Below are positions 12,015-33,398 of a stretch of DNA of 34,570 bases, one piece after another. Position 1 is the stretch's first letter, and each line of letters begins with the position of its first letter. A program made the position numbers and the translations under genes. Location: the IMG/VR virus record IMGVR_UViG_2554235190_000007. One strand, 5' to 3'. Origin of the DNA: a virus. Its lineage: Duplodnaviria > Heunggongvirae > Uroviricota > Caudoviricetes. The notes beneath the pieces are model-generated. The model saw nothing but the letters and a program-made list of their open reading frames with translations, did no database searches and had not been told where the DNA came from.

Positions 12015-12016
12015 AC

Positions 12017-12217: not shown

Positions 12218-12266
12218 GATTCTTCACCCGTCAGAACAGGGGGCGCGGTTCCGCGCCCTTGAGTGA

Positions 12267-13472: not shown

Positions 13473-13486
13473 CGTATTTCTCCTGA

Positions 13487-15538: not shown

Positions 15539-15549
15539 AATTACCTCAG

Positions 15550-17774: not shown

Positions 17775-17799
17775 ATGCGGCACTCCTGGTTAAATTTCA

Positions 17800-17899
17800 T
17801 TTTTCGCGGGTATAAAAAAACGATGGGGCGGGCAGTCCGGAAGACGTCAGGTCACAGAGATTTGACCCGCCCCTCCCCTCAGACAGTTGAGAATTATTA
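17800..17899. other. candidate cos (cohesive end / terminase recognition) region
   Basis: Non-coding gap between the HNH gene and the terminase small subunit, where HK97-type phages carry cos. Contains the G-rich GGGGCGGGCAGTCC (about 17825..17838) and its partial inverted partner GACCCGCCCC (about 17864..17873). Position-based inference only. Confidence 0.3.
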
Positions 17900-18250
17900 T
17901 CACTTAAGTCGTTCACGGGCCGTCTTCGCCTTATGACACGGCCAGCACAGACTCTGCAGATTACAGTCGGCATCAGTGCCGCCATGCGCTTTAGGGATGA
18001 TGTGGTCAACGGTTTTCGCCTCACGCACCACACCAGCACGCAGACATAACTGACACAGGCCTTTGTCACGCTTCAGGACACCCGCGCGGATACTGTCCCA
18101 CTTCGAACCATAACCGCGCTGATGACGGGATTGTCCTGGCTTGTATTGCTTCCAGCCCTCGCTTTTGTGGCTTTCGCAATAGCCTGACGGATCAGTCGTG
18201 GTATTGCGGCAACCGCGAAAACGGCAGGCTTTTGGGGTTCGTGGTGGCAT
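17900..18250 (-). CDS. HNH endonuclease (terminase-associated)
   Basis: 116 aa with Cys-rich zinc finger and HNH motif (CQLCLRAGVVREAKTVDHIIPKAHGG...NLQSLCWPCH); immediately upstream of terminase as in HK97-like cos phages. Confidence 0.85.
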   Translation of the reverse strand: MPPRTPKACRFRGCRNTTTDPSGYCESHKSEGWKQYKPGQSRHQRGYGSKWDSIRAGVLKRDKGLCQLCLRAGVVREAKTVDHIIPKAHGGTDADCNLQSLCWPCHKAKTARERLK

Positions 18251-18285
18251 TTATATCCCCTCTTTGGTGCACGCTTACAATGCGT

Positions 18286-18310
18286 AAAAAAGCCTCGCAT
18301 TAGCGAGGCT
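18286..18310 (-). terminator. rho-independent terminator upstream of the HNH gene
   Basis: Hairpin AGCCTCGC-(4 nt)-GCGAGGCT followed on the minus strand by TTTTTT. Confidence 0.5.
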
Positions 18311-18416
18311 CGTTTATATCTTGAAGGTGAATACTTATTGTCTTATCTATCCACGGGAAACATTAAGATTATTACACCCGTTAGTTGGGAAATAAAACAA
18401 AATGCAGGTGGTTTAT

Positions 18417-18641
18417 TTATTCTTTGCTGATTGCTTTCTGAATGGCATCGGCTAATGGTTCAATTAAGCCAATAGCTGCTTTTAATTCCTGTTCAAATTT
18501 TGCACTTGTAGCCTGACCACCTGCAGAAGAAAGTGAGGCCTTAACTAATTCAAGGGCAGCTTGAACAGCTATAACCCTCTGTTTTTGAGCTTGAGTTACA
18601 GGCTGAGCACCTATTCCTGAAGGGAAATAATTCTCTAACAT
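18417..18641 (-). CDS. hypothetical small helical protein (74 aa), AT-rich insert between Rz and HNH
   Basis: ATG preceded by GGAGG with 5-nt spacing; lower GC than the neighbours; flanked by about 270 bp and 100 bp of non-coding DNA and followed by a terminator. No family recognised. Confidence 0.5.
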   Translation of the reverse strand: MLENYFPSGIGAQPVTQAQKQRVIAVQAALELVKASLSSAGGQATSAKFEQELKAAIGLIEPLADAIQKAISKE

Positions 18642-18908
18642 TACAACCTCCGTATTAAAAAGTGAGGTTACACATTACCCTTAAGATTACTCTTAGTGAA
18701 GAGGTATCTCATAATTATCACCCTTACCAATAACGCTTGATGAAATTTGTAATGGACTGGCTCTTATTTCAACGCAACCACTTACCGCGCGCCAGATGCT
18801 TAACCTCAAACATTAGCAATGAGATGTTTAATCTGAATCCACTCCAGAAGTAATCACCACTCTGTCTACAGGGCCTGATGTGAAGGATGATGAGTAAAAT
18901 TATCGCTA

Positions 18909-19370
18909 TCATCGAAGGCATTGCGTCCTGATGTACTCCTGCAGGTAGTTAACCTGTGCGGTTATCCTGTCGATTCCACTTCGGAGACGGTAATAATTGA
19001 GTTCAGCATCTGCTGTAAGTCCTGGGCTTTCTCCATCGCCCATGCCGCTGGCTCTGGTCGTTGATTTTGCACAGGTGGCGGCGACTTGCAGGCGCTTACG
19101 CCCAGAAGAAACATCAGCACGGAGACTTTCGATAGTCGCGTTAGCATCAGCAAGCTCCTTTGTGTATCTGGCGTCAAGTTCTGCTACGTCACGTTGACGC
19201 TTCTGCATATCAGAGATAGTCGCCATAGCCGAATCTAATGCCATAGCATTCTCATCACGCTGCTTTTTGTATGCGATGGCTTTGCTGTGGTAATAATTTG
19301 CTGAACAGATAAAAGAACCAATGACAGTAACGAAGAATGCAGCGATAACCAGCTTATAGCTCAACTTCAT
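18909..19370 (-). CDS. Rz: Rz i-spanin
   Basis: 153 aa with N-terminal TM anchor and coiled coil; close similarity to lambda Rz (e.g. MQKRQRDVAELDARYTKELADA versus lambda MQMRQRDVAALDAKYTKELADA). Confidence 0.85.
   Translation of the reverse strand: MKLSYKLVIAAFFVTVIGSFICSANYYHSKAIAYKKQRDENAMALDSAMATISDMQKRQRDVAELDARYTKELADANATIESLRADVSSGRKRLQVAATCAKSTTRASGMGDGESPGLTADAELNYYRLRSGIDRITAQVNYLQEYIRTQCLR
18962..19147 (-). CDS. Rz1: Rz1 o-spanin lipoprotein, embedded in Rz in the +1 frame
   Basis: Embedded ORF with a lipoprotein signal MLTRLSKVSVLMFLLGVSAC (lipobox VSAC) followed by a Pro-rich segment KSPPPVQ, as in lambda Rz1. Start chosen at the internal Met (track ORF extends to 19177). Confidence 0.65.
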   Translation of the reverse strand: MLTRLSKVSVLMFLLGVSACKSPPPVQNQRPEPAAWAMEKAQDLQQMLNSIITVSEVESTG

Positions 19371-19830
19371 TTACCACCCCGCCAGCCTCTTTGAATCGGG
19401 CAATCAGGTCACCGATTTTATGTTCATACTGACCGTAACCAGCGCCCGGCAGTGAAGCCCAGATATTGCTGCAACGATCGATAGCCTGACGAATATCGCC
19501 GCGATCAATCATCGGTAAAGCGCCACGCTCTTTAATCTGCTGCAATGCCACAGCATCCTGGCTTTTTGGAGAGAAGTCTTTCAGCCCAAGCTGCTTGCGG
19601 TAAGCATCCCACCAGCGTGAAAGAAGTTGATAACGGCCTGCAGCTGTTGATTTGAGTTTGGGGTTTAGCGTGACAAGTTTGCGAGGGTGATCGGAGTAAT
19701 CAGTGAAGAGTTCACCACCGACAATAATATCATAACCGTGGTTACGTGTCGGTTGTCGCCCGTTATCCGTTCCTTCTGACCATGCCACCATATCGAGGAA
19801 AGCTTTACGCTGAGGATTAAGATTTTGCAT
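19354..19830 (-). CDS. R: endolysin, lambda R-type lytic transglycosylase
   Basis: 158 aa, near-identical over long stretches to lambda R as I recall it (QRKAFLDMVAWSEGTDNGRQ...RYQLLSRWWDAYRKQLGLKDFSPKSQDAVALQQIKERGALPMIDRGDIRQAIDRCSNIWASLPGAGYGQ). Confidence 0.9.
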   Translation of the reverse strand: MQNLNPQRKAFLDMVAWSEGTDNGRQPTRNHGYDIIVGGELFTDYSDHPRKLVTLNPKLKSTAAGRYQLLSRWWDAYRKQLGLKDFSPKSQDAVALQQIKERGALPMIDRGDIRQAIDRCSNIWASLPGAGYGQYEHKIGDLIARFKEAGGVVNEVEL

Positions 19831-20221
19831 TTTTCACCCCTGTCAGTCGTTCCCAGAAGTACGTCAGTGCAACCGAACCCATCGCACCACTAATCCCCGC
19901 TGTCGCGAGAATCATGTAAATACTGAATCCACTTTCGATGCTGATCAGGCCACCAATAACACCGGTGAATCCTGATACCACTATCTGAGCCAGAGCATTT
20001 ATCCAACTCCACGTTGCTTTACTCTGCTTCACATCTATCAGGTAGCGGACCAGACCGCCCCAACCTGCGATGATCAGCAAAACGAGCCAGAACGCTCCAG
20101 CAAGATTCTCTTTTTCGTGCATATGAATAGCCGCAGTTTCGCCTCCGACAGAAAATCGGAGCGTGAAATGATATGTTGATTTATTATTAATTCGAAAATT
20201 ACATTCTAATTCATCAGGCAT
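19817..20221 (-). CDS. holin (three predicted TM helices)
   Basis: ORF immediately upstream of the endolysin with hydrophobic segments AFWLVLLIIAGWGGLV, INALAQIVVSGFTGVIGGLISI, IYMILATAGISGAMGSVAL and a charged C-terminus. The first 33 residues look non-holin-like, so the true start may be the internal Met near 20122; neither start has a convincing Shine-Dalgarno. Confidence 0.65.
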   Translation of the reverse strand: MPDELECNFRINNKSTYHFTLRFSVGGETAAIHMHEKENLAGAFWLVLLIIAGWGGLVRYLIDVKQSKATWSWINALAQIVVSGFTGVIGGLISIESGFSIYMILATAGISGAMGSVALTYFWERLTGVKNAKS

Positions 20222-20240
20222 TGATGATTTTATAATAATA

Positions 20241-20261
20241 AAGGCCGTTCGTTACGGCCTT
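20241..20261 (-). terminator. hairpin terminator between the acidic insert gene and the holin
   Basis: AAGGCCGT-(5 nt)-ACGGCCTT stem-loop followed on the minus strand by TTTATTATTAT; symmetric, could act in both directions. Confidence 0.45.
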
Positions 20262-20273
20262 TATTATTGATAT

Positions 20274-20609
20274 TTATTTTACATCCCAAGGTAGTTCCTC
20301 AAGAGAGAAGACTAATTCATTATCAATGATTTCGTATTCTGCATAACCTTCAACCTCTCCTGAGAAGTTATTGTCAACGCATCCTTCATAATAGCTATAT
20401 GGTGCTATAAAGTGAAACCCATATTCATCTATCTCTGTGATTTCAAAATTGTAGTAATCGTAAGAATATCGAATATCATCATCAGAAATAGAACTAAGTA
20501 CATAGTTATTAAATTTATCGGAATGCTTAACGATAAGCTCTGACAACGCGTCAAGATTCTCTGGAGAGATATTTCCTAACGGTAATCTGTACTCAACGGC
20601 ATTAATCAT
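20274..20609 (-). CDS. hypothetical acidic protein (111 aa), AT-rich insert between Q and the lysis genes
   Basis: ATG with AGGAGG 4 nt upstream; very AT-rich; strongly acidic and Tyr/Glu/Asp-rich (e.g. DDDIRYSYDYYNFEITEIDEYGFHF, EGYAEYEIIDNE). Flanked by terminators on both sides. No family recognised. Confidence 0.6.
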   Translation of the reverse strand: MINAVEYRLPLGNISPENLDALSELIVKHSDKFNNYVLSSISDDDIRYSYDYYNFEITEIDEYGFHFIAPYSYYEGCVDNNFSGEVEGYAEYEIIDNELVFSLEELPWDVK

Positions 20610-20661
20610 ACAACCTCCTTTTTAACTGATATGAGGTTATATAATGTGTTTCAGTACAAGT

Positions 20662-20688
20662 AAATAAAAACCCGCTCAACAGCGGGTT
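20662..20688 (-). terminator. tR'-like rho-independent terminator just downstream of the late promoter
   Basis: Minus-strand hairpin AACCCGCT-(4 nt)-AGCGGGTT followed by TTTTTATTT, about 40-65 nt downstream of the predicted late transcription start. Confidence 0.6.
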
Positions 20689-20734
20689 CGTGAAAATTAT
20701 CAACGGCAGACATACAAAGCCCATCGTTGAGAAA

Positions 20735-20763
20735 ATCTTATCCATATTTTTTGAAAAATGCAA
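20735..20763 (-). promoter_or_regulatory. candidate late promoter (pR'-like) downstream of Q
   Basis: Minus strand TTGCAT - 17 nt - TAAGAT, about 30 nt after the Q stop codon and directly upstream of the tR'-like terminator, mirroring the lambda Q - pR' - tR' arrangement. Confidence 0.45.
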
Positions 20764-20794
20764 GCTTCATGTCGCCATCTTCGGCGAAAATCAC

Positions 20795-21547
20795 TTATCT
20801 CGTCACCTTTCTCAATTGCGTTTCAGCATATGCTTCTTCCTGCCAGCACTTTGTTACTAGTTTATCAATTACGTCTGCATATCCTTTGTACCACTGATAA
20901 TCAGTCAGGTCTGGAACCAGCTTCTGGACATGACGTCGTGCCAGTGTAGTTGGTAAACGGCTAAACCGGTTTCCATTGCAACGCCCACAAATCTTATAAA
21001 CAGGCGTGCCATGAAGCCGGGTCCTTTTTTCATCCAGGACAATACCTTTACCCTTACACCCTCTGCACGCTGTGCTGACTTCTCCCTTACCATGACAATG
21101 CTGACATAGTTCCTTCACCCACTCTTCCTTGATAACAGATTCCCCGCTTCTGGAGTGTTTCACCACCTCGCGCAATACATTATGAAATCCAGTACCAGCA
21201 CAATGCTCACAGCGAGCCTTACTTGCCGCAGACCTGGAATAATCAGCAAAGGCAAAATTCACAAGGTAAGGAATGATCTGTAGCCGGGTTTCTTCACTCA
21301 ATTTATTCAATGTCGGGTTATCCAGTGCCATCGCGTAATTGAGCAGACCTTCAATCGCAAACTGAGGATCCTGAACACCAACTTTTGCCAGGAATAAGGC
21401 AAACCCAAGCGGTGCTTTCGACTGCACCATCCCCTGCGCAGCCATCACATCCGTAATCGTTAAACCACCAGAGCCTGTCGCCGGTGCGTCATCGCTCAGT
21501 TTTGGAGATTTCGGGGAGTAATATTTCGGTAAGGCTTCAAGGTTCAT
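20795..21547 (-). CDS. Q: late gene antiterminator Q (zinc-binding Q family)
   Basis: 250 aa, N-terminus MNLEALPKYYSPKSPKLSDD and several CxxC pairs (CEHCAGTG, CQHCHGKG, CRGCKGKG, CGRCNG); located immediately upstream of the late promoter/terminator and lysis genes. Confidence 0.75.
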   Translation of the reverse strand: MNLEALPKYYSPKSPKLSDDAPATGSGGLTITDVMAAQGMVQSKAPLGFALFLAKVGVQDPQFAIEGLLNYAMALDNPTLNKLSEETRLQIIPYLVNFAFADYSRSAASKARCEHCAGTGFHNVLREVVKHSRSGESVIKEEWVKELCQHCHGKGEVSTACRGCKGKGIVLDEKRTRLHGTPVYKICGRCNGNRFSRLPTTLARRHVQKLVPDLTDYQWYKGYADVIDKLVTKCWQEEAYAETQLRKVTR

Positions 21548-21560
21548 GCTCGTTCTCCAC

Positions 21561-22556
21561 TTACGCCAGTACGCCTATTGCCAGCGCACGATCGATAAAA
21601 CGAAATATCAGCTCCAGCTGGGAACCATACTTCTCTTCAAATGCCACGGTATCCGCATGCAGCTCGTCGTGATGCTTTCTGCACAAAGGCAACACAAAGA
21701 GGTCATGCGCTTTTGTACCCATTCCCCCCTGACCGTGGCCTATCAGGTGGTGGGGATCATCAGCAGGCTTTCCACAACATGCACACGGCTGTGTCTTAAC
21801 CCAGCGTGTGTATTTTTCATTAACCCAGCGGCGACGTTTTGGGCGTAACATAAAAGACTCCGGCGACTCCGGATCCACTTTCAGCGCCAGCACCTTTTTC
21901 ACCTTATCCTGGATGATGCTGGTGGCAGGAACCGAAGGCACAAGGTCACTTTCCCGGGTGACAGACGGCACAACAGGCTTCGGTAATCTCAGTGCCTTAC
22001 GGGCTGCACTTTCCGGTAAGGCATCCGCCAGGTCATTACGAATCAGCCACCAGCACAGTTCCGGCATTGTCACAACGTGACTGTCATCAAAACCGAGATC
22101 CCGACGCACAACAGACAACACCCAGCGGGCACAGTTATCCGTTGCCATTGATTCCAGCCGTTCCGTGAACTGATCGCGCAGCTGGTTATCGCAGTGCCAG
22201 CACAGACGGATTGCGCCCGGAGCGTGTCGCATTGTGGTCATGTTCTCGCTGTGCCAGTCGGAATGAGGCCACTGGCAGCCTTTTTCACGAAGTAACCAGC
22301 TTTCAAGACATTCCACGCCACCAGCACGACGGATCACTGCCTCATTGCGGAACACGGCCTGAACGGCAGGATCATCCGCCAGCGGTTGTGATGCCGCCGG
22401 AACGGCACCACTGGCGAAAGATGAATAACGTTCCGGCTCAGGCTCCAGCAGGACACGCCCCTGCATAAACAGGGGCATCAGCTCTGAACCTGGTCTGAAC
22501 AATACGATCCCCATACGCGGGGCAATTTCAGGGGTCAGTAGTGCTCTCACGGTCAC
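21561..22556 (-). CDS. DUF968-family prophage protein (YdfU-like) with C-terminal Cys/His-rich motif
   Basis: 331 aa; C-terminal region CACCGKPADDPHHLIGHGQGG...LPLCRKHHDELH resembles DUF968 / HNH-like zinc-binding proteins found next to Q in lambdoid prophages. GTG start in the track; true start uncertain. Confidence 0.45.
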   Translation of the reverse strand: MTVRALLTPEIAPRMGIVLFRPGSELMPLFMQGRVLLEPEPERYSSFASGAVPAASQPLADDPAVQAVFRNEAVIRRAGGVECLESWLLREKGCQWPHSDWHSENMTTMRHAPGAIRLCWHCDNQLRDQFTERLESMATDNCARWVLSVVRRDLGFDDSHVVTMPELCWWLIRNDLADALPESAARKALRLPKPVVPSVTRESDLVPSVPATSIIQDKVKKVLALKVDPESPESFMLRPKRRRWVNEKYTRWVKTQPCACCGKPADDPHHLIGHGQGGMGTKAHDLFVLPLCRKHHDELHADTVAFEEKYGSQLELIFRFIDRALAIGVLA

Positions 22557-22557
22557 C

Positions 22558-23355
22558 TCAATGAACGGTATCGAGCAGCTTTAACAGCTCAGGGAATCGG
22601 GATTCGAAGAAATGCGGCTGCGTCTCGCGCGGATTTGCAGGACTGGTGATGTTCTTGCCGAACATGCAGCCTTTCGCCGTCAGCGACCAGAATTTTTTGA
22701 TGTTGTTAATCGCGGTACGGCTGTATCGTTCGCGTTGTTCAACGATCCCCAGCTTCGCCATCTGGTGATATGCCTGATTAGCTGTCAGGCAGATACCATA
22801 CTGCTTCAGCAGTGCACTCAGTGACAGCGTGGGGCGGCTTGAGCCATCAGGCGCGTCAGCAGGAGCATCAATGGCATAGCGCGGTGCCAGATTCGGTAAG
22901 CCAACAGCCTCCTGGAGTTTCTGACAGGCACCAAGCACTGAAGAGTTAGACAGGTTTAACTCCCGGCGCATAAAGTCCAGCAGGATCACGCCAGCCTGCA
23001 TCTTGTCAGCAGCCTGCCCGGATAATTTTTCCGGTGTGCTGGTTACCATATCGAAAGTACGGATCACCTTCAGATGGAATGACGGGCTGATCCACATTGC
23101 ATAGGCATACACCAGTTCTTTGCAGACATACGTCCCTTGGTTATTTCCGCCACGAATAACGTTAACTGGCGCTATATTGACCGAGTTGCAAATCTGCAAC
23201 TCGCTTATTAAACGTTCGGTTTGCTCATTGCGGAGCCAGAATGCAGGCTTATGTTTATCCAGAGAACCGGCAGCCCTGTGCAGATCGTTCAGGCTGTAAC
23301 GCCCATAAGCATCACGACGAACTTCAATACCATCAATAACCATCAGATTATTCAT
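22558..23355 (-). CDS. KilA-N domain protein
   Basis: 265 aa; N-terminal region MNNLMVIDGIEVRRDAYGRYSLNDLHRAAGSLDKHKPAFWLRNEQTERLISEL matches the KilA-N pattern common in enterobacterial prophages. Confidence 0.6.
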   Translation of the reverse strand: MNNLMVIDGIEVRRDAYGRYSLNDLHRAAGSLDKHKPAFWLRNEQTERLISELQICNSVNIAPVNVIRGGNNQGTYVCKELVYAYAMWISPSFHLKVIRTFDMVTSTPEKLSGQAADKMQAGVILLDFMRRELNLSNSSVLGACQKLQEAVGLPNLAPRYAIDAPADAPDGSSRPTLSLSALLKQYGICLTANQAYHQMAKLGIVEQRERYSRTAINNIKKFWSLTAKGCMFGKNITSPANPRETQPHFFESRFPELLKLLDTVH

Positions 23356-23374
23356 ACTTCGTTTCTCCTCTTAA

Positions 23375-23764
23375 TCAGGCGGCTGCACCCGCCGGTTTCT
23401 CGTACTTACTGATAGTGATCTCGACCTTCCCTTCCGGGATAACCGGTCCCCACTCCACCAGCATTCTTTTCACCTGACTGTCGTCTTCCCACACACCCGC
23501 GTGGGTCAGGGCGTCAAACAGCGCCTTGTTATAGTTGTCCAGATCGCGGATCCGGTTATCCGGAGGAAACAACACGATCTCCACTGAAGCAGGTGCCGAC
23601 GTTGGTTTTGGCAGACGACGTAACTGCTCAACTATTGCTGCACACGCCGCGCTCTGGAATTTGCGCCCCGCCGCGCTTATCAGGCTCTTACCAGCAAACG
23701 CCCCTTTGTTGGGGTGTCGCCAGTACGTGTTCACGCTGGGCGGAAAAGGCAGGATCAGCTTCAT
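23375..23764 (-). CDS. rusA: Holliday junction resolvase RusA
   Basis: 129 aa, MKLILPFPPSVNTYWRH...DLDNYNKALFDALTHAGVWEDDSQV, the RusA signature; typical nin-region gene. Confidence 0.85.
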   Translation of the reverse strand: MKLILPFPPSVNTYWRHPNKGAFAGKSLISAAGRKFQSAACAAIVEQLRRLPKPTSAPASVEIVLFPPDNRIRDLDNYNKALFDALTHAGVWEDDSQVKRMLVEWGPVIPEGKVEITISKYEKPAGAAA

Positions 23765-24087
23765 ACTTTCAGGCCCCTCTCATGTAACCAGTGGGCTGCA
23801 CGCAGCCTGGCGTTTTCCTCACCGGCAAGCAGTGAGCGGATAATCCCGACCGCCTCGCTGCCGTCGTCCTTCACCGCGGTATGAAGCGTTATCCCCCGTG
23901 CCACGCCACGCTTTATCGTGATGACGCCTTTTTTCTCCAGTGCGCGAAGATGCTCCACCGCTGCATTCACTGAACGGTATCCCAGCATGGTAGCCACCTC
24001 CTGATTGGTTGGCGGGAAGCCACGTTCTTTCTGATAAGAAATCAGCATATCCAGCACCTGCTGCTGGCATTGAGTTAATGTCGTCAT
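23761..24087 (-). CDS. LexA N-terminal DNA-binding domain protein (no peptidase domain)
   Basis: 108 aa; MTTLTQCQQQVLDMLISYQKERGFPPTNQEVATMLGYRSVNAAVEHLRALEKKGVITI aligns well with the winged-helix domain of LexA ([58 protein letters not shown], from memory), but the protein ends before any S24 peptidase domain. Confidence 0.6.
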   Translation of the reverse strand: MTTLTQCQQQVLDMLISYQKERGFPPTNQEVATMLGYRSVNAAVEHLRALEKKGVITIKRGVARGITLHTAVKDDGSEAVGIIRSLLAGEENARLRAAHWLHERGLKV

Positions 24088-24737
24088 GCCGCCATCTCCC
24101 TGACCAGTTTTTCCGCCTGCTGGCGAACCTGCGCCAGAAAGGCCTCACCACATGCCTCAAGTTCATCGCGCCCGATGTAGCTGATTGCCGGTCCCTTCCA
24201 GGTCTTGTCGAAAACAGCAATAGCACCAGCGAAGAAAGCGCCTGTCGGTACCTGCTTCTCGTCTTTCGGGATAAACCAGACAGGCAGTTCAAAACCAATA
24301 CGCCCGCGAATAAAAGCAATATGATCTGCATTTTCCGGCCACCACACTTCGCTGGTGGCAGCTTTGATCAGGAAAACATAGCGCCCGCCTTTATCACGCA
24401 TGGCACTGGCATGCTTCATGATGTAACGCATGCCGGTGATGTATTGCCCCTCATGCTGACTGGCGCGGCTGTATGGGGGATTACCAAAGGCAGCACCTTT
24501 AAGCTCCGCAAGACGTTCTGACCAGTCATGCGCCAGCGCGTTGTCTTCCGCCGTGTAATACGCGGCACATTTGGCGTTATCACCGTCAGTGAACAGATCC
24601 AGAACAAACGGGCCAAACAGGGTGTTAATTCCCCAGAAAATGTTGTCCGGCGTGCGCCACTGATCGCCCACTTCCTTCAGTTCATGGGCTGGTTTGTTCC
24701 GCAGTTCCACCAGCGCCTGGCAATATTTATTACTCAT
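24084..24737 (-). CDS. phage-type N6-adenine DNA methyltransferase (Dam family)
   Basis: Contains the NPPY catalytic motif (GNPPYSR) and a phage-Dam-like N-terminus (NKYCQALVELRNK...WRTPDNIF). Start placed at the ATG overlapping the upstream stop (TAATG) rather than the track GTG at 24770. Confidence 0.75.
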   Translation of the reverse strand: MSNKYCQALVELRNKPAHELKEVGDQWRTPDNIFWGINTLFGPFVLDLFTDGDNAKCAAYYTAEDNALAHDWSERLAELKGAAFGNPPYSRASQHEGQYITGMRYIMKHASAMRDKGGRYVFLIKAATSEVWWPENADHIAFIRGRIGFELPVWFIPKDEKQVPTGAFFAGAIAVFDKTWKGPAISYIGRDELEACGEAFLAQVRQQAEKLVREMAA

Positions 24738-25231
24738 TAAGCCCCCACGTAATTCCCTGACAGATACCACTCTTCACCCGATGCAGCGCGCTTGCTGCTT
24801 TTCCGTAAGCACCGCTCACGACGCGCCAGAAAATTGTTTCGCTCTTGCTGGGAGTGGCTTTCACGGAATGCCGCCATCCACACCGTTGCAGCACGACGGT
24901 ATAAGCCCCTGGACTCCAGTTCTTCCGCCTGGCGGGTCAGGCACAAAATCTCCCGCGGGTCGTTAGTGCCGACATAGAAATTGCGCACAGGTCTGGTTTC
25001 ACGAACTGGTTGCGGTTCCGCCTCCTGCGCTCTCTCAGTCAGGCGCGGGAAATGTCTGCGTGTATCCCCTTCACAACGGTGAGCCACACGACCACTCTGA
25101 CGTAACTTGCTTGCTGACTGCAGAACGCGCTGCCGTGAGTAACCTGCAAAAGCATCCGCAATGTCTCCGGAAGTACACCCCGGATGGGCTTCAATGTATT
25201 TCTGAACTTCATTCAAAAGACTCATGATCAC
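24737..25231 (-). CDS. PerC-like transcriptional regulator
   Basis: 164 aa; the region AEELESRGLYRRAATVWMAAF matches the PerC-family core as I recall it. GTG start in the track (an ATG lies 2 codons in). Confidence 0.45.
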   Translation of the reverse strand: MIMSLLNEVQKYIEAHPGCTSGDIADAFAGYSRQRVLQSASKLRQSGRVAHRCEGDTRRHFPRLTERAQEAEPQPVRETRPVRNFYVGTNDPREILCLTRQAEELESRGLYRRAATVWMAAFRESHSQQERNNFLARRERCLRKSSKRAASGEEWYLSGNYVGA

Positions 25232-26169
25232 CCCCTGAATCCTGCCGGGATCTGGCTGTAGTCCACGTTGTCGTAACTGGCTTTGAAGTACGGGTCTTCG
25301 CGTTTTTCGGTGTACGTGCTGACGGACGGCGATAAGCGCAGGGAAAGCTCATCCCATTTTTCCCGCAGCTTCGACGGGCTGAGCACGTTACGGCACCAGA
25401 ACGGATCGCGGCTGACGCGGCTGTACATCTCGCAGATTTGTTTGTGAGTACGACCATCCTGCACACACATCAGGCGAATTTCGTTTGCCCAGGCTGTCCA
25501 GTTCGGTTCTTTGGGACGAACCACCTCGCCGTCACATTCGGCGGCCTGCTCGTACAGGGCGATGATTTTTTTCCAGAGCCACTGTGCGCAGGTCAAATCA
25601 TCCTGCGTTCCCCACTGGCGCTTTTTAGGGCTGAATACAACCGCATCAGGATGGCGAGTTAAAAACTCCTGTTCAGCCGTCTGCGTGTCCGGTTGCGAAG
25701 CGTCCGGACGAGAAGTTTTTTTATCTGACGGATCATGTTTTGATTTTACTGACGGATCCCCGCCAGATTCTGACGGGTGAAAACCCGCTTTTTTGCCAGA
25801 TTTCGACGCATCAAATTTTGACGGGTCAGATTTTGATGCGTCAGATTTTGACGGGTCAGAATCTGACAGTTGAGAAAATGCCGCTGCCTGAAGCTTCGCA
25901 ACGTTAAGCTGATAAACATTCGACGCATTGCGGTTACCCTGGCGACGCGCCTTACGCGTTAACCAGCCTTCTGCTTCCAGCCGTGCGATAGCCGTTCTGA
26001 CGGTACTCATCCCCGCGCCAATCTGACGGGCAATGGTTTCAATTGATGGCCAGCACACACCTTCGTCATTACTGAAATCAGCCAGGCGGGCCATAATTGC
26101 CACGCTGGATAATTTCATGCCTGACGCAGCGCAACCATCCCATACATAGCCGGTTAATTTAGTGCTCAT
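25228..26169 (-). CDS. replication initiation protein (lambda O-like organisation, winged-helix N-terminus)
   Basis: 313 aa; N-terminal HTH-like region (SSVAIMARLADFSNDEGVCWPSIETIARQIGAGMSTVRTAIARLEAEGWL), central Ser/Asp/Pro/Lys repeat linker encoded by tandem 15-bp DNA repeats, C-terminal domain; in the replication position between CII-like and nin-like genes. Confidence 0.55.
   Translation of the reverse strand: MSTKLTGYVWDGCAASGMKLSSVAIMARLADFSNDEGVCWPSIETIARQIGAGMSTVRTAIARLEAEGWLTRKARRQGNRNASNVYQLNVAKLQAAAFSQLSDSDPSKSDASKSDPSKFDASKSGKKAGFHPSESGGDPSVKSKHDPSDKKTSRPDASQPDTQTAEQEFLTRHPDAVVFSPKKRQWGTQDDLTCAQWLWKKIIALYEQAAECDGEVVRPKEPNWTAWANEIRLMCVQDGRTHKQICEMYSRVSRDPFWCRNVLSPSKLREKWDELSLRLSPSVSTYTEKREDPYFKASYDNVDYSQIPAGFRG
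25796..25870. repeat. tandem 15-bp direct repeats (candidate iterons) inside the replication initiator gene
   Basis: Five head-to-tail copies of a 15-bp unit (plus-strand consensus TCAGATTTTGACGGG, variants TCAAATTTTGACGGG, TCAGATTTTGATGCG, CCAGATTTCGACGCA, TCAGAATCTGACAGT) with two more degenerate copies at about 25741..25777. Confidence 0.5.
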
Positions 26170-26178
26170 GACCGACCT

Positions 26179-26517
26179 CTATTTCCCTGAATTTACGACG
26201 AAACTGTTCGAGCGGGCTGAAGCACTCATGCTCATAGTCTTCGCGGAGGTAGATAACCCGTTGTGTTTCCGGCTCCCAACGAATGACTCTGACGGGTACT
26301 CCGTAGTGATCTTTGAACCAGCGGTTAACTTGTCGCAAAGGACTGTCTCCTTCTGCCGGTTGAAATCACCCACAGCCCACTCTGCAAAGCTGTGGGTTAC
26401 AATTTCCCTGTCACCTGGTACATTCACTGCATAGCAATATTCCACCTTCGCTTTTCCACCCGGTACAGGAAGCGCAATCAGTTGCGAGCGACGGTAGTGT
26501 GTTGTTAAACTGTTCAT
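26179..26517 (-). CDS. hypothetical protein (112 aa) between CII-like and replication genes
   Basis: ATG overlapping the upstream stop (ATGA) and ending 10 nt before the replication gene start, with GAGG upstream of that start; strand and coupling support a real gene. No family recognised. Confidence 0.4.
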
Positions 26518-27083
26518 GCGTTAGTTTCTCCACAACCAGAAGCAATCGACGCCACGACGCCCGGAGCTGCACACTCGCGGGCGTCATTACTTTCTGAAAT
26601 GCAAAAAATTTTGTAGACAAGTGCTGCATGCTCCTGCAGCTTCGAAATTGAGAGATACAGCTCGTCGTTAATTGCTGTCTTCTCATGCGGTTCCACTACA
26701 CCGTCTTCGATTGCTGAACGAATCTGTTTTGAATAACTGCCGATCTGTTCAATGACTTCCAGCAGACGCTGGTTAATATCGGCGTTGTCCACATCCTCGA
26801 CGTCAGGAAGAGACACAAAGACGCCATTTGCAGACTGCGCCACAGCATCAGCAATGAAGTGAGTGCCACCAGCACGCTGTAAAACCATTGCCCATCCCAG
26901 CGGGAAAATCTGATCGCCATCTGCACGAAGGCGGTTGAATAAAGCGTTTTCTGTTACATCGAGCCAGTCAGCCGCTTCAGCGTAACCACCCGGCAACGCC
27001 GCGATAGTTTTTCTGACAGCTTTCACGTACCACTCAGGCTGTTTTTCTATTTTCCAGTGATGCTTACCCACGATTAGCCTCAT
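26514..27083 (-). CDS. CII-like regulatory protein (CP76 / YdaT-type)
   Basis: 189 aa immediately downstream of cro on the same strand, the position of cII in lambdoid phages; size and sequence are compatible with the large CII-type family, but the assignment is from memory. Confidence 0.45.
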
Positions 27084-27114
27084 CGTTCTGTGGTTAAAAA
27101 TTGAAAGTGTTCTG

Positions 27115-27315
27115 CTAATCTTTCGGATAGATATCCGGTCTTAAGTCAGATTTCGTAATTGCACCTGACGTGCATTGCTCAAGTTTTTTAGCCAGCACAA
27201 AACTGGCTTTTTTATAGCCATTGAAAACCAGCCGTAAGTAGCCAGGTGTTGAGCCAACTTTTCCGGCCAACTCGCCCTGCTGTTCTTTGGTTAAAGAGTC
27301 CCAATACGCTTTCAT
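27115..27315 (-). CDS. cro: Cro-like repressor (YdaS-type HTH)
   Basis: 66 aa, MKAYWDSLTKEQQGELAGKVGSTPGYLRLVFNGYKKASFVLAKKLEQCTSGAITKSDLRPDIYPKD; HTH and C-terminal DLRPDIYP match YdaS/Cro-like proteins. Divergent from cI with GGAGG 10 nt upstream. The track ORF 27115..27618 is a 5'-extended version that overlaps cI. Confidence 0.7.
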   Translation of the reverse strand: MKAYWDSLTKEQQGELAGKVGSTPGYLRLVFNGYKKASFVLAKKLEQCTSGAITKSDLRPDIYPKD

Positions 27316-27320
27316 ACAAT

Positions 27321-27389
27321 ATGTACCTCCGATGTACATATTACATGATTGAAATGAACCTTCAAGATACTTGTACCTTAACGGTACAA
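27321..27389. promoter_or_regulatory. right operator region: two 19-bp palindromic operators with divergent cro and cI promoters
   Basis: ATGTACC-TCCGA-TGTACAT (about 27321..27339) and TTGTACC-TTAAC-GGTACAA (about 27371..27389), sharing TGTACC half-sites. Candidate cro promoter on the minus strand TTGAAG-16-TAATAT; candidate cI promoter on the plus strand TTGTAC-17-TTTAAT placing the start at or next to the cI ATG (leaderless). Confidence 0.5.
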
Positions 27390-27405
27390 GGGTTTTAATT
27401 TCGTT

Positions 27406-28080
27406 ATGAAAACAATCCATGACATCCGGCGGTCTAACGCCAGAAAACTGAGAGATGGTGTTGGCGGGAATTCTTCCTTTGCCACTATGATTGATCGCGA
27501 GCCAACCCAGACCAGCAGGTTTATGGGAGATGGTGCTACTAAAAATATCGGTGACAGCATGGCACGACACATCGAAAAATGTTTCGACCTGCCTGTCGGA
27601 TGGCTCGATCAAGAACACCAGACAACGAACATCACAAAAAAACCTGATGTTTCAATCACTAATAAACAAATCACATTAGTCCCTGTCATATCATGGGTAC
27701 AGGCCGGAGCATGGAAAGAAGTTGGATATTCTGAGGTTGATTTGAGCACAGCAGAAACGTATCCCTGCCCTGTCCCCTGTGGGGAAATGACTTATATCTT
27801 GCGGGTGATAGGTGATTCAATGATTGATGAGTACCGCCCGGGAGACATGATTTTTGTCGATCCTGAAGTACCTGCCTGCCACGGTGACGACGTTATTGCA
27901 TTGATGCACGATACAGGTGAAACCACCTTCAAAAGGTTGATAGAAGATGGGACACAGCGTTATCTCAAAGCGTTAAACCCAAACTGGCCTGAGCCTTACA
28001 TTAAGATCAACGGTAATTGCTCTATAATTGGTACAGTGATTTTCTCAGGAAAACCAAGAAGATACAAAATCAAAGCCTAA
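27406..28080 (+). CDS. cI: CI-type prophage repressor (HTH plus S24 LexA-like peptidase domain)
   Basis: 224 aa; N-terminal HTH, Ala-Gly autocleavage site (WVQAGAWKE), Ser/Lys dyad context (VIGDSM ... TTFKRL); divergent from cro across the operator region; ATG start with no Shine-Dalgarno. Confidence 0.85.
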   Translation: MKTIHDIRRSNARKLRDGVGGNSSFATMIDREPTQTSRFMGDGATKNIGDSMARHIEKCFDLPVGWLDQEHQTTNITKKPDVSITNKQITLVPVISWVQAGAWKEVGYSEVDLSTAETYPCPVPCGEMTYILRVIGDSMIDEYRPGDMIFVDPEVPACHGDDVIALMHDTGETTFKRLIEDGTQRYLKALNPNWPEPYIKINGNCSIIGTVIFSGKPRRYKIKA

Positions 28081-28092
28081 TCAATGTTTATG

Positions 28093-28115
28093 AACCTGCT
28101 TCGGCAGGTTTTTTT
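28093..28115 (+). terminator. rho-independent terminator after cI
   Basis: AACCTGC-(4 nt)-GCAGGTT followed by TTTTT, starting 13 nt after the cI stop. Confidence 0.5.
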
Positions 28116-28119
28116 ATAC

Positions 28120-28152
28120 TTGACAATGTACCTTTGAGATACATAATGTACC
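28120..28152 (+). promoter_or_regulatory. pL-like promoter overlapped by repressor operator half-sites
   Basis: TTGACA - 16 nt - CATAAT on the plus strand, with ATGTACC repeated between -35 and -10 and again over the start region (ATGTACCTTTGAGATACAT resembles the right-operator sites). Confidence 0.45.
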
Positions 28153-28569
28153 CAAGAGAAACAACAAACAGGCAGGACGTCCACGAAGTAGCCGCCTGGG
28201 GCATATGAAGTCCAAGATGATTCGTTAGCAACAAAACGCCCATAGGACGCTTCGCTCTTTAACAATTTGAATATTTTCAGCGTCAATGATCTGTTTAGCT
28301 CCCTACAAGTAAATGTAGCGTAGCACCATGATAAATCCTGCTAGTGTTTAGTTAAAAATCGCGCGAGAGCAAGAACGACGTGAGGGCAGGCAATATTGAT
28401 AGTGTTATTGCTATTAGTTTATCAAAAATATTTAGACGACCCAGATGAATATTTTTAATACATACTCCCCCTAATTTAACAGGAGTAAATGTTGATGAAT
28501 AACGAGACATCTATACTCAACAATTGTATGATATGAACAATTATATAACATAATGTAGGAAAAATAAAA

Positions 28570-29166
28570 ATGGATTGGCATGACCTTATATCAAAGGTAA
28601 TTATCGGACTTGTTACAGGCTCAATCGCAGCTTACTTAACTGCGCGATATGCACTCGGCCGTTATTATAAAGAAAAATGGTGGGACAAAAGAATAGATTT
28701 GTATACGCAATTAGTTGACTGTGTTTATCTTCTAAAAAACACAGCTGACTATTGGTATAAACATGAGTTACATCACGCTTCACAATTCCCAACCTACTTT
28801 AGTTACAAATCAAAAGAAGAAAATGAAATCCTTAGCAAATCTTTCTCTAATGAGCTTGAAAAACTCAGTAGAATAGGTGAGCTATCTTCATTATTCTTAA
28901 CAGAAGAGTGTGGGGATAAAATCCGTTCATTCATTGAAAATGAAGAAAATCTATTTATACAATGGGAGTTTGATAGTATAGAGTTGATAGATGCCCACAA
29001 GTCAAGACTTGATAAATTAAAAGTATTACTAGACGATATTATCTCTGAAGCAAAGAGAGAGCTTAAGGTCAATAAAAAACATAACAGCCTAAAGAATATA
29101 AAGTGGTCCATAACTATGCCAGACCAAAAAAATGATGAGCCAATTAATTATTACGACAATCATTAA
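28570..29166 (+). CDS. hypothetical membrane-anchored protein (198 aa), AT-rich cassette downstream of cI
   Basis: ATG with AGGA upstream; one N-terminal TM helix (ISKVIIGLVTGSIAAYLTARYAL), W/Y-rich juxtamembrane segment (YYKEKWWDKRIDLY...DYWYKHELHH) and K/E-rich helical C-terminal domain; very AT-rich; clean terminator follows. No family recognised. Confidence 0.65.
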   Translation: MDWHDLISKVIIGLVTGSIAAYLTARYALGRYYKEKWWDKRIDLYTQLVDCVYLLKNTADYWYKHELHHASQFPTYFSYKSKEENEILSKSFSNELEKLSRIGELSSLFLTEECGDKIRSFIENEENLFIQWEFDSIELIDAHKSRLDKLKVLLDDIISEAKRELKVNKKHNSLKNIKWSITMPDQKNDEPINYYDNH

Positions 29167-29176
29167 AACACTTTAG

Positions 29177-29198
29177 AACCCGCTGGGCGGGTTTTATT
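29177..29198 (+). terminator. rho-independent terminator after ORF 28570..29166
   Basis: AACCCGC-(3 nt)-GCGGGTT followed by TTTATT, 11 nt after the stop codon. Confidence 0.6.
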
Positions 29199-29588
29199 CA
29201 AATATACTTTGCACATCACAAATAAAACTATAACGTCCTTCTTCTTTTCCTAATATCTTATATCTACTTATTTATAAGCGGCTTACAGATCTTCAACAGA
29301 TAAACCTAATGAAGGCGACAATGTTCTGATGAATAGCCACCTTTTTACTCAACTGAAAGCGCGTTCTGTCCCTTGTCATTAAGTGCCAGTTCGTTAAGTC
29401 CAAAACCTCCGGAACGCGCTTTCAATTGAGTGGGGAAAATAACTGGCGATGGCAGCCGCCCGTTGCACTAAGTGCCTCTGGATGGGGCATTTACTGAAAC
29501 GAAACCAAAACTTTTAATCGCCTTATGGCGAGGGATTCGTGCAACCAAAAATCGTGCGGTGCAGCGCACCAATTAAGGAGAACTAACG

Positions 29589-30125
29589 ATGAGTTTTATC
29601 CAGACTCTTACCGGTAAGAAGTTCAATTATATCAACTCCACCATTGACGATATTTATATCGAGGATATCGCCGGTGCGCTTTCAAATATCTGCCGCTTCG
29701 CGGGACACTTGCCGGATTTTTACAGCGTGGCGCAGCATTCCGTTCTGTGCAGTCAACTTGTGGCGCCAGAGTTCGCCTTTGAAGCGTTAATGCATGATGC
29801 AACAGAAGCGTATTGTCAGGACATCCCCGCGCAACTGAAACGCCTTCTTCCTGACTATAAACGGATGGAAGAAAAAATAGACGCCGTAATCCGTGAGAAA
29901 TACGGGTTACCCCCGGTTATGAGCACGCCCGTGAAATATGCCGATCTCATCATGCTGGCAACCGAACGCCGCGATCTCGGGCTTGATGATGGCTCTTTCT
30001 GGCCTCTACTGGAAGGTATCCCAGCAACAGAGATGTTCAAAGTTATTCCACTGTCGCCAGGCCATGCCTACGGGATGTTTATGGAACGTTTTAACGAGTT
30101 ATCGGAGTTACGCAAATGCGCATGA
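29589..30125 (+). CDS. HD-domain phosphohydrolase (YfdR-like)
   Basis: 178 aa with HD motif (FEALMHDATEAY) and upstream His (FAGHLPDFYSVAQHS); strong Shine-Dalgarno AAGGAG; first gene of the early-left operon. Confidence 0.75.
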   Translation: MSFIQTLTGKKFNYINSTIDDIYIEDIAGALSNICRFAGHLPDFYSVAQHSVLCSQLVAPEFAFEALMHDATEAYCQDIPAQLKRLLPDYKRMEEKIDAVIREKYGLPPVMSTPVKYADLIMLATERRDLGLDDGSFWPLLEGIPATEMFKVIPLSPGHAYGMFMERFNELSELRKCA

Positions 30126-30478
30126 ATGTTTTCGAAATGGAAGGGTTTCTTCGCGGGAAATGTGTACCGCGAGATCTGAAAGTGAATGAAACGGATGCTG
30201 AATACCTGGTGCGTAAATTCGATGCGCTTGAAGCTAAATGTGCGGCACTGGAAAACAAAGTAATACCAGTGTCAACTGAACTGCCACCAGCAAATGAAAG
30301 TGTTTTGTTATTCGATGCTAACGGAGAAGGCTGGCTAATTGGCTGGCGTTCTCTCTGGTACACCTGGGGACAAAAAGAAACCGGAGACTGGCAGTGGACA
30401 TTTCAGGTCGGGGACCTTGAAAACGTCAATATCACTCACTGGGCAGTAATGCCAAAAGCACCGGAGGCTGGAGCATAA
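30116..30478 (+). CDS. DUF551-domain protein
   Basis: 120 aa; Trp-rich C-terminal region (GWLIGWRSLWYTWGQKETGDWQWTF...ITHWAVMP) typical of DUF551; start overlaps the HD gene stop. Confidence 0.65.
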   Translation: MRMNVFEMEGFLRGKCVPRDLKVNETDAEYLVRKFDALEAKCAALENKVIPVSTELPPANESVLLFDANGEGWLIGWRSLWYTWGQKETGDWQWTFQVGDLENVNITHWAVMPKAPEAGA

Positions 30479-30783
30479 TGACCACTTTTACCGACAAAGA
30501 ACTGATTAAAGAAATCAAAGAGCGTATCAGCAGCCTTGACGTGCGAGACGATATTGAGCGCCGTGCTTATGAAATCGCACTCCTATCTCTGGAAGTAGAG
30601 CCAGATGAACGCGAATCCTATGAATTATTTATGGAAAAACGTTTCGGTGGCTTAGTAGATAGTCGGAGAGCAAAAAACGGCGATAACGAATACATGGCAT
30701 GGGATATGACTCTCGGTTGGATCGTCTGGCAACAACGAGCTGGCATTCATTTTTCAACAATATCACAGCAAGAGGTGAAATAA
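30478..30783 (+). CDS. hypothetical protein (101 aa), early-left operon
   Basis: ATG overlapping the upstream stop; no family recognised. Confidence 0.5.
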   Translation: MTTFTDKELIKEIKERISSLDVRDDIERRAYEIALLSLEVEPDERESYELFMEKRFGGLVDSRRAKNGDNEYMAWDMTLGWIVWQQRAGIHFSTISQQEVK

Positions 30784-31133
30784 TGGAACCATACAGCCTC
30801 ACGCTAGATGAGGCCTGTCATTTTCTCAAGATATCCAGACCGACTGCCATTAACTGGATACGCACAGGGCGTCTGCAGGCAACACGCAAAGATCCCACTA
30901 AGAATAAATCTCCTTACCTCACAACACGACAAGCCTGCATTGCGGCGCTTCAGTCTCCGCTGCATACTGTCCAGGTGAGCGCGGGTGATGGCATAACAGA
31001 GGAAAGAAAATGTCACTCTTCCGCAGAGGTGAAATATGGTACGCCAGTTTCACATTGCCGAACGGTAAAAGATTTAAACAGTCTCTTGGAACAAAGGACA
31101 AAAGGCAGGCGACAGAACTCCATGACAAGCTAA
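30783..31133 (+). CDS. xis: excisionase-like HTH protein
   Basis: Starts at the ATG overlapping the upstream stop (TAATG) with GAGGTG upstream; [36 protein letters not shown] is a typical excisionase/AlpA-type HTH. The frame stays open to 31133, overlapping the integrase start by about 120 nt, so the 3' end is uncertain. The track ORF 30699..31133 includes an unlikely 5' extension. Confidence 0.55.
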
Positions 31134-32173
31134 AGGCTGAAGCATGGCGGGTCAGCAAACTTGGTGAAATTCCTGATATAACGTTCGAGGAAGCGTGTGT
31201 CAGGTGGCTTGAAGAGAAAGCACATAAAAAATCACTGGACGATGACAAAAGCCGGATCGGATTCTGGCTTCAACATTTCGCAGGAATGCAACTAAGAGAC
31301 ATTACTGAATCAAAAATTTATTCAGCAATGCAGAAAATGACGAACCGGCGTCATGAGGAAAACTGGAAACTCAGGGCAGAAGCATGCAGAAAAAAAGGGA
31401 AACCTGTTCCAGAATACACGCCAAAACCAGCGTCCGTTGCAACGAAGGCTACGCATCTTTCATTTATAAAGGCCCTGCTAAGAGCCGCAGAGCGTGAATG
31501 GAAAATGCTGGATAAGGCACCAATTATTAAAGTGCCTCAACCAAAGAATAAACGGATCCGCTGGCTGGAGCCTCATGAAGCACAAAGGCTGATTGATGAA
31601 TGTCCGGAGCCATTAAAGTCTGTTGTTGAATTTGCACTTGCAACAGGCTTAAGACGCTCGAACATCATCAACCTTGAATGACAACAAATAGACATGCAGC
31701 GCCGGGTGGCATGGATAAACCCGGAAGAGAGTAAATCAAACCGCGCAATTGGCGTTGCGCTGAATGATACTGCATGTCGCGTATTGAAAAAACAAATCGG
31801 GAATCATCACCGTTGGGTATTTGTGTATAAGGAAAGCTGTACCAAACCAGACGGAACGAAAGCGCCAACAGTCAGGAAGATGCGGTATGACGCAAACACA
31901 GCCTGGAAAGCGGCGCTGAGACGAGCAGGTATTGATGATTTCAGATTTCACGACTTGAGACACACCTGGGCAAGTTGGCTGGTTCAAGCCGGAGTCCCGT
32001 TATCAGTGTTACAGGAAATGGGAGGCTGGGAGTCTATCGAAATGGTTCGTCGATATGCTCACCTCGCACCTAATCACCTTACCGAACACGCACGGCAAAT
32101 AGACTCGATTCTGAACCCATCGGTCCCAAATTTGTCCCAGTCAAGAAATAAGGAAGGTACTAATGATGTGTAA
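31010..32173 (+). pseudogene. int: tyrosine integrase interrupted by one in-frame stop codon (read as TGA at 31679..31681)
   Basis: Track ORFs 31010..31681 and 31694..32173 are in the same frame. The first carries the N-terminal arm-binding domain and the first catalytic Arg ([13 protein letters not shown]); the second carries the rest of the catalytic domain ([18 protein letters not shown]). The stop falls where family members usually have Trp (LEWQQID), so a single TGG to TGA change is the simplest explanation. Confidence 0.7.
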
Positions 32174-32187
32174 CTTATTGATTTAAA

Positions 32188-32236
32188 TGGTGCCGATAAT
32201 AGGAGTCGAACCTACGACCTTCGCATTACGAATGCG
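32188..32236 (-). other. att core: 3' 49 nt of tRNA-Thr(CGU) (thrW-like), not a complete tRNA
   Basis: Plus strand TGGTGCCGATAATAGGAGTCGAACCTACGACCTTCGCATTACGAATGCG is the reverse complement of a tRNA 3' portion (anticodon loop TTCGTAA with anticodon CGT, T-arm GGTTCGACTCC, acceptor stem, CCA). The upstream 5' half of a tRNA is absent. Lies 15 nt after the integrase stop. Confidence 0.65.
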
Positions 32237-32324: not shown

Positions 32325-33398
32325 ATGGCGACTATACGCAAACGTGGTAATTACCAATGGGAAGCTCAAATCCGTAAACGTGGTTTTCCCTCTCAAACCA
32401 AAACCTTTAACACCAAAGTAGAAGCAGATGCTTGGGCCAAAATGATCGAGTCAGAAATGGCGAGAGGAGTTTGGCTTAGCCGCAGCGAAGCGGAATCTAC
32501 GACATTGTATGAAGCCCTAACGCGCTATGAAAAAGAGATTGTTCCCGACAAAAAAGGAGCAGTGCAAGACCGATCATTGGTGCGGATACTAAAAGGCACT
32601 CAGCTGGCAAAAAACTATATGGCCAGCATCAGGAGTGCCGATGTCGCCAAGCTAAGAGATGAATGGTTGAAAATTTATGCTCCTGCAACCGTTTTAAGGC
32701 GTTTGGCCTTACTTTCTCATGTATTCAATGTTTCGCGGAAAGAATGGGGCATGGAGAGCCTGCTGAACCCCGTAGAGGCCATTCGCAAACCCCAACCCAA
32801 GAACTCAAGGACCAGACGCCTGGAAGCGCTGCCTTTAGTTTCTGAGCAAACCGGTGTTACGTCAGGAAAGGAATTAGCCAACGAGATCGAACATATCATT
32901 GCCGCAACACATTCATTAGTATTGCCAGCAATCATTCTTCTGGCGTTAGAGACAGCCATGCGCCGTAGCGAAATTGCAGAACTTCGATGGCGCTTTATCG
33001 ATCTTGATAGGCGAGTTGCACACCTGCCGGATACTAAGAATGGTAATGCTCGCGATGTCCCCTTATCCACAAAGGCTGTTATGGTACTATCCAATCTAAA
33101 GGAGCGTTCTAAACAAGCTGATGACAAGGTTTTTGGAATGCGTGCCGATGCGATCACCCGCGCTTTTGATCGAGCTGTAAAGCGCGCCAGAGAAAGATAT
33201 GAACAAGCTAAACCTCAATGTGATGACACCTTCCTCAAAGATTTAAGATTTCACGATCTCCGGCATGAAGCGACCTCTCGCTTGGCTGAGATTTTCCCCA
33301 TGCACGAGCTGACAAAAATCACGGGGCATAAAGACCCGAGAATGCTAATGCGGTATTATCATCCAAAAGCTGAGGATTTAGCGTTAAAGTTGAAATAA
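32325..33398 (+). CDS. tyrosine integrase of a second, adjacent integrative element
   Basis: Arm-type N-terminus (MATIRKRGNYQWEAQIRKRGFPSQTKTFNTKVEADAWAKMIE) and catalytic motifs (RRSEIAELRW, FHDLRHEATS, LMRYYHP). Track ORF starts at TTG 32295; the ATG at about 32325 is the more likely start. Begins about 90 nt after the att fragment and points away from it. Confidence 0.8.
   Translation: MATIRKRGNYQWEAQIRKRGFPSQTKTFNTKVEADAWAKMIESEMARGVWLSRSEAESTTLYEALTRYEKEIVPDKKGAVQDRSLVRILKGTQLAKNYMASIRSADVAKLRDEWLKIYAPATVLRRLALLSHVFNVSRKEWGMESLLNPVEAIRKPQPKNSRTRRLEALPLVSEQTGVTSGKELANEIEHIIAATHSLVLPAIILLALETAMRRSEIAELRWRFIDLDRRVAHLPDTKNGNARDVPLSTKAVMVLSNLKERSKQADDKVFGMRADAITRAFDRAVKRARERYEQAKPQCDDTFLKDLRFHDLRHEATSRLAEIFPMHELTKITGHKDPRMLMRYYHPKAEDLALKLK

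Follow-up and report, generated by a model that had tools for sequence, protein, structure and literature searches.

What becomes of a prophage whose integrase gene is interrupted, well inside the reading frame, by a single stop codon? We investigated this question in a 34,570-nt stretch of phage DNA (hereafter the window, meaning the whole stretch that was analyzed), where the integrase gene int carries a TGA at 31679..31681. A preliminary description had placed the two integrase halves in one reading frame, split only by this TGA, with the N-terminal domain upstream of the stop and an ATG at 31694; the ORFs and the one-base difference from an intact allele (E. coli 401651, locus L001) bear this out. 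The features to which the text refers are, in window coordinates:

1..32236: the part of an SfV/SfI/e14-like prophage that lies in the window, with tail, head, terminase, lysis, replication and immunity genes, then xis-int
30783..31133, plus strand: xis, an excisionase of 116 aa with a helix-turn-helix, intact and overlapping the start of int by 124 nt
31010..32173: int, a P22/SfV-type tyrosine integrase gene of 387 codons (1164 nt) with one in-frame TGA inside
31010..31681, plus strand: the 5′ part of int, 223 codons and the premature TGA, as in the ORF list
31679..31681, plus strand: the premature TGA, which a G>A transition at 31681 has made out of TGG (Trp224)
31682..32173, plus strand: the 3′ part of int, codons 225–387, then a TAA stop
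32188..32233, minus strand: the 46-bp att core, which is the 3′ end of the tRNA-Thr gene thrW and an exact match to the published core ATTCGTAATGCGAAGGTCGTAGGTTCGACTCCTATTATCGGCACCA
32325..33398, plus strand: the island integrase (Int2), 357 aa, matching Pfam PF00589 at 94 bits

The window holds the int-proximal end of the prophage, the left end and the second att site being outside. Its positions 1..32236 align with the thrW prophage of E. coli 0H26 at 98.4% identity over 32,236 nt. The 0H26 prophage combines a Mu-like contractile tail with an HK97-type head and with a P27-family terminase and HNH endonuclease; its e14-like ymfK/ymfT/ymfL immunity genes are followed by xis-int. Besides int, 46 annotated CDSs of the 0H26 prophage have a counterpart in the window, each full length and stop-free, the S24-peptidase repressor gene and xis among them; int alone has a stop. 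Xis matches Pfam HTH_17 (E = 1.6e-08), is 100% identical to its 0H26 homologue, and is annotated as excisionase in phage SfIV. The att core, which is common to the SfI/SfII/SfV/SfX/P22 group (PMC3636060), starts 14 bases downstream of int and marks the int-proximal prophage end; identity to thrW runs on to 32236, and homology to other E. coli prophages also stops at 32236. By the identity of int, the 46-bp core beside its 3′ end and the overlapping xis, this is a P22/SfV-type Int-Xis-att(thrW) module.

Elsewhere in the prophage, the repressor gene (ymfK-like, S24 peptidase) and the early-left genes flank an ORF of 198 aa (28570-29166, plus strand). This ORF is kept in related prophages, has no Pfam or PADLOC match, and may be a moron or accessory gene. 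Pfam and PADLOC searches of the unannotated ORFs 28570-29166, 30116-30783 and 33409-34356 returned nothing relevant.

The 223-codon ORF of int shares one reading frame with a 159-codon ORF that ORF finders call from ATG 31694 (Met229) to 32173. The sequence around the stop is AAC CTT GAA TGA CAA CAA ATA GAC ATG (N L E stop Q Q I D M), with C as the base right after the TGA (UGA-C) and the codons CAA CAA ATA GAC between the TGA and ATG 31694. RefSeq gives intact homologues a length of 372 aa, with a start matching 31055. The longer start at 31010, with its 124-nt overlap with xis, looks real because P22-type Int has 387 aa and a GAGGA Shine-Dalgarno sequence stands upstream of ATG 31010.

The intact allele mentioned above is the closest one known to us from the comparison, with 1 difference in 1164 nt: position 31681 is A in the window and G in E. 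coli 401651, and this single difference turns TGG (Trp224) into TGA. We aligned the best 120 homologues (71–99% identity; 331–388 aa, 94 of them exactly 387 aa) and found Trp in the codon-224 column in 120/120, within the invariant block RRSNI-x-x-x-E-W-x-Q-I-D-M-Q-R. The view that the family typically has Trp at the position of the stop is thereby upheld. The preliminary description had also named, as a finding that would speak against a broken gene, homologues with two natural ORFs divided at this position; none of the best 120 is a naturally split integrase.

The stop falls within the catalytic domain. When TGG is restored, Int matches Pfam PF00589 (Phage_integrase) over profile positions 1-171 with 164 bits, on residues 184-355. 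Without the repair, the N-terminal fragment matches positions 1-45 on residues 184-223 at 26.7 bits, just under the gathering score of 27.1 bits, and the C-terminal fragment matches positions 51-171 at 112 bits (the N-terminal fragment also has a sub-threshold match to DUF6538 at 3-44). Because the profile is shared out between the two ORFs and is whole on the repaired copy, they are one gene; no single ORF codes the whole domain, though the gene is a member of the family by descent. The stop lies at about profile position 45 of 172, some 40 residues into the catalytic domain, and the boundary of the domain itself lies near residue 184 rather than at 224.

Motif positions in the repaired protein, together with alignments to HP1 integrase and a XerC-like recombinase, gave the catalytic residues Arg215 (TGLRRS), Lys242, His314 and Arg317 (HDLRH), Trp340 (GGWES) and Tyr349 (RRYAH). 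The 5′ part of int codes the DNA-binding region at the N terminus, the beginning of the catalytic domain, and Arg215, which alone lies upstream of the stop, and the 3′ part codes Lys242, His314, Arg317, Trp340 and the Tyr349 nucleophile. This agrees with the earlier placement of the first catalytic Arg upstream of the stop and of His, Arg and Tyr downstream. All six residues are still encoded and unmutated, though no longer on one chain.

We then asked how widely the stop occurs. Relatives of int are present in 2714 of 5426 complete E. coli genomes, and SfV-type int, at least 80% covered, in 1066 of the 5426, in up to three places per genome. A 61-nt query centered on the stop found its segment in 1281 complete E. 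coli genome records, each time at 98.4% identity (one mismatch); the exact 61-mer with A was found in 0/1281 of these records and in none of the 5426 complete E. coli genomes. The 26-mer with TGG at codon 224 matched at least 120 IMG/VR contigs. With TGA or TAA at that codon it matched nothing in GTDB species representatives, IMG/VR or JGI metagenomes, and with TAG nothing in IMG/VR. Because the stop is absent from the relatives in these collections, it is not a conserved recoding signal.

Judging from the sequence, it is likely that int is here a recent nonsense pseudogene, and that the prophage is consequently defective in excision and integration, a "grounded" prophage that is inherited vertically and has taken its first step of decay. 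One recent G>A transition, TGG (Trp224) to TGA, has struck the int of an otherwise intact thrW prophage. Translation from ATG 31010 would stop after residue 223, and the truncated Int would keep its DNA-binding N-terminal half and Arg215 but have neither the Tyr349 nucleophile nor four other active-site residues; without Lys242, His314, Arg317, Trp340 and Tyr349 it should be unable to cleave and rejoin DNA. Prophages of the lambda/P22 type need Int for both integration and excision, and for this reason the prophage would be stuck in the chromosome. It would no longer excise at normal frequency, nor re-integrate at normal frequency in a new host after infection, and its progeny, if any, would be unable to lysogenize by site-specific recombination. 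The grounded prophage would then pass vertically within one E. coli lineage, and the allele's persistence in two or more of the sampled genomes fits this.

One disabling difference from a close intact allele, and no further decay among the CDSs of the window, make up the pattern of a recent pseudogene. The preliminary description had offered an excision-defective prophage, as a first step towards domestication, among several options, and a lone, lineage-restricted G>A in the catalytic domain, the sole lesion in 47 genes, favors that one. A second lesion, or a second, complementing copy of SfV-type int, may lie outside the window. The interrupted int is an ordinary nonsense pseudogene of a well-known gene, and the kind of event is already known.

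The same codon could act as a leaky block instead, with near-cognate tRNA-Trp reading UGA-C, a little wild-type Int being made and excision being much reduced; we regard this as unlikely, though not so unlikely as to be passed over. The stop is UGA followed by C, the context in which, as Poole et al. reportedly found in 1995, RF2 terminates most weakly in E. coli. UGA is the leakiest E. coli stop, and its decoding by tRNA-Trp would put the original Trp back and rebuild the exact wild-type Int, so that a certain amount of full-length Int may be produced. Reporters in E. coli K-12 showed UGA readthrough by Trp-tRNA-Trp of about 2% at 37 C and 4% at 25 C (PMC10570021). However, products of readthrough that were visible in K-12 could not be detected when the more active RF2 allele of E. 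coli B was present (PMC5373646), and the figures from K-12, whose RF2 has reduced function, overestimate readthrough in natural isolates. Int activity should, furthermore, drop more steeply than the protein level, since Int presumably acts as a tetramer.

Against anything more than leakage stands the distribution of the codon, since a TGA that stands at codon 224 in 0/1281 complete E. coli genomes and in no IMG/VR contig is no evolved device for recoding. The fold of 31679-31760 had a z-score of −1.31, with 20 of 200 shuffles folding at least as well, and gave no sign of a stimulatory structure; Rfam over 31400-31950 returned no match at E ≤ 1, leaving a SECIS or readthrough element unsupported; and ARAGORN found no tRNA in the window that could be a suppressor tRNA carried by the prophage. 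Neither of the two marks of programmed readthrough or selenocysteine recoding, a conserved stop and a downstream RNA element, was thus found. Programmed UGA readthrough is exemplified by the coat/A1 protein of Q-beta. As in that case, the window has an in-frame UGA that tRNA-Trp can decode, with coding continuing in frame. Unlike that case, its stop is not conserved and has no stimulatory element, and the ancestral state is plainly TGG. The earlier suggestion that the element relies on readthrough is unsupported on both counts, conservation and structure, and readthrough of this stop is at most an accidental leak.

A more elaborate version would make the TGA a "leaky lock", permitting rare, heterogeneous excision through a small, condition-dependent share of full-length wild-type Int, while the abundant 223-aa fragment, its DNA-binding half retained, might sit on att sites and hinder the integration of related phages at thrW. 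UGA readthrough in E. coli does vary with temperature, cAMP and cell-to-cell noise (PMC10570021), and we consider the proposal speculative and rather improbable.

If int is a pseudogene, Int might still be supplied in trans, by Int2 of the neighboring element or by an SfV/P22-type Int of a co-resident or superinfecting phage. From 32237 a separate island lies in tandem with the prophage at the same thrW site, and the junction between the two has the same thrW 3′ segment for both; xis is intact; and the frequency of SfV-type int given above (1066/5426 complete E. coli genomes) makes a helper Int plausible in nature. Int2, however, aligns with Int in the catalytic domain alone, where the two share only about 30% identity over 244 columns, and the N-terminal arm- and core-binding parts of the two are not alignable, which makes a shared site specificity unlikely. 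The reliance on the neighbor's integrase that the preliminary description had considered is therefore unsupported. No second SfV-type int is present within the window, and in E. coli E2 the prophage-core-island order is the same and the phage int is intact, so that the tandem arrangement is not tied to loss of int. Supply in trans is accordingly quite improbable as the explanation of this locus.

Several observations concern the island itself (window 32237-34570; 11316-20672 in L005). After Int2 come an ORF of 315 aa, which matches no family in Pfam or PADLOC, and a VbhA-family antitoxin gene, and farther right in the source contig are genes for TrbL, a NikA-like protein, an AbiJ_NTD3 protein and HamA (a Hachiman component). 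From this gene content it looks like a degraded integrative mobilizable island with defense genes. At the prophage/island junction (32188-32262, minus strand) 49 nt of the thrW 3′ end run into island DNA and form with it a hybrid pseudo-tRNA; it scores 22.6 bits against the Rfam tRNA model, under the gathering score of 29 bits, and ARAGORN finds no tRNA in it. RefSeq annotates a 112-nt "tRNA-Ser" at the junction in E. coli E2 (L015 20015-20126), and "tRNA-Ser" is also listed under the junction match in other complete genomes; the "tRNA-Ser" at this junction is probably a mis-annotation.

The A at 31681 might also be a sequencing or assembly error and int in truth intact, a reading that turns on a single base. 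An exact look-up of the 223-aa product found the TGA allele in GCA_000392575.1 (contig ASHB01000087.1) and GCA_029361645.1, the former matching the window at 100% identity over 13.6 kb and the latter over 8.1 kb. The same TGA, in flanks identical throughout (8-13.5 kb), is thus present in two separately deposited NCBI assemblies, although these could be one clone, so that random base-call error is excluded by their agreement and a laboratory-stock mutation is not. The exact 159-aa downstream ORF was found on 4 contigs, one of them a third-party reassembly entry, and position 31681 is not in a homopolymer. With the allele in two separate assemblies and the 159-aa ORF on 4 contigs, a random base-call error is very unlikely. 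The earlier description had held that reads showing TGG here would tell against it; the A instead recurs in separately deposited assemblies.

The look-up of the 223-aa product hit 17 contigs, ten of which were listed, and it also returns contigs that end within the next codon. Six of the ten listed places (L007, L009 and L011-L014) were such artefacts, their contigs ending 0-2 nt past codon 223. Two further places, on short contigs, have TAG at the codon of window 31679-31681: L008 2076-2078 (ENA ERZ27232847) and L010 1236-1238 (Logan ERR3955943). Their int backgrounds share 98.9% identity with one another and 97-98% with the window. The two TAG codons are nonsense events at Trp224 separate from the TGA allele of the window. 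We do not read codon 224 as a hotspot, because the look-up could detect stops only there, whereas int offers 45 possible nonsense transitions, and because about 7% of int copies are disrupted elsewhere.

That the ribosome reinitiates at ATG 31694, as the preliminary description had also proposed, and that the 223-aa and 159-aa fragments form an active two-piece recombinase, is scarcely credible: the ATG is in frame and 12 nt past the stop, a distance at which terminating ribosomes can reinitiate, but the 25 nt upstream of it contain no Shine-Dalgarno sequence, the break is inside the catalytic domain and not at the boundary near residue 184, a two-piece Int would be without residues 224-228, including the invariant Trp, the product from 31694 would have neither Arg215 nor the opening quarter of the catalytic domain, and 0/120 of the best homologues are naturally split.

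The reading of int as a recent pseudogene can be set against its known relatives. The int genes of the Shigella flexneri phages SfIV, SfV, SfI and SfII and of Escherichia phage phi458 are 98.2-98.7% identical to that of the window at the nucleotide level over 1164 nt. They are intact (387 aa) with TGG at codon 224, whereas the window copy has TGA. These phages, like the window, have xis overlapping int and then att, with an identical 46-bp thrW core. Beyond attP from int, their genomes carry the gtrABC O-antigen modification genes (PMC3636060); in the window the neighboring island lies to the right of the att core, and the prophage end where gtr-type genes would sit is outside the window. The int of Salmonella phage P22 is more distant, with 79% nucleotide identity over the whole gene, and has the same 387-aa length and an overlapping 116-aa Xis. 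The paper on SfI gives P22 the same att core (PMC3636060). P22 has a different phage backbone, and its Int is functional, in contrast to the window copy with its stop at W224.

"Grounded" or cryptic prophages with inactivated recombination modules have been reviewed (PMC6379469). In these, including serotype-converting prophages of Shigella with a truncated int, int is lost by point mutation, frameshift or truncation, and the element stays. The prophage of the window would be at the very start of this path, since int is the sole lesion seen and is one base from an intact allele.

Loss of int is not rare among the relatives. We examined 109 IMG/VR proviruses with a fully aligned int, all of them picked for TGG at codon 224 and so unbiased elsewhere in the gene, and int was disrupted in 8 of the 109 (about 7%). 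Five of the lesions are A7->A6 at the run of window 31390-31396, one is G3->G2 adjacent to it, one is an 8-bp duplication, and one is a nonsense codon at 378. With about 7% of related proviruses carrying a disrupted int, the stop of the window is an ordinary event. The recurrent frameshifts at the A7G3 run (window 31390-31399) point either to a genuine slippage hotspot that inactivates int or to errors of homopolymer sequencing in older draft assemblies, and the homopolymer frameshifts may in part be sequencing errors. Truncated entries from Shigella and E. coli are also numerous in the clusters of Int proteins; quite a few of them bear the label "partial" and may have been cut short by contig ends.

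For annotation, the two ORFs of this locus should be entered as one int pseudogene with an internal stop and not as two integrase genes, and the prophage should be scored as probably non-excising despite its complete look. It offers a tidy case of the earliest visible stage of prophage grounding, with one base altered and the rest of the window intact. The source strain, if available, could serve as a handy natural control in excision assays or in measurements of UGA readthrough against a wild E. coli background.
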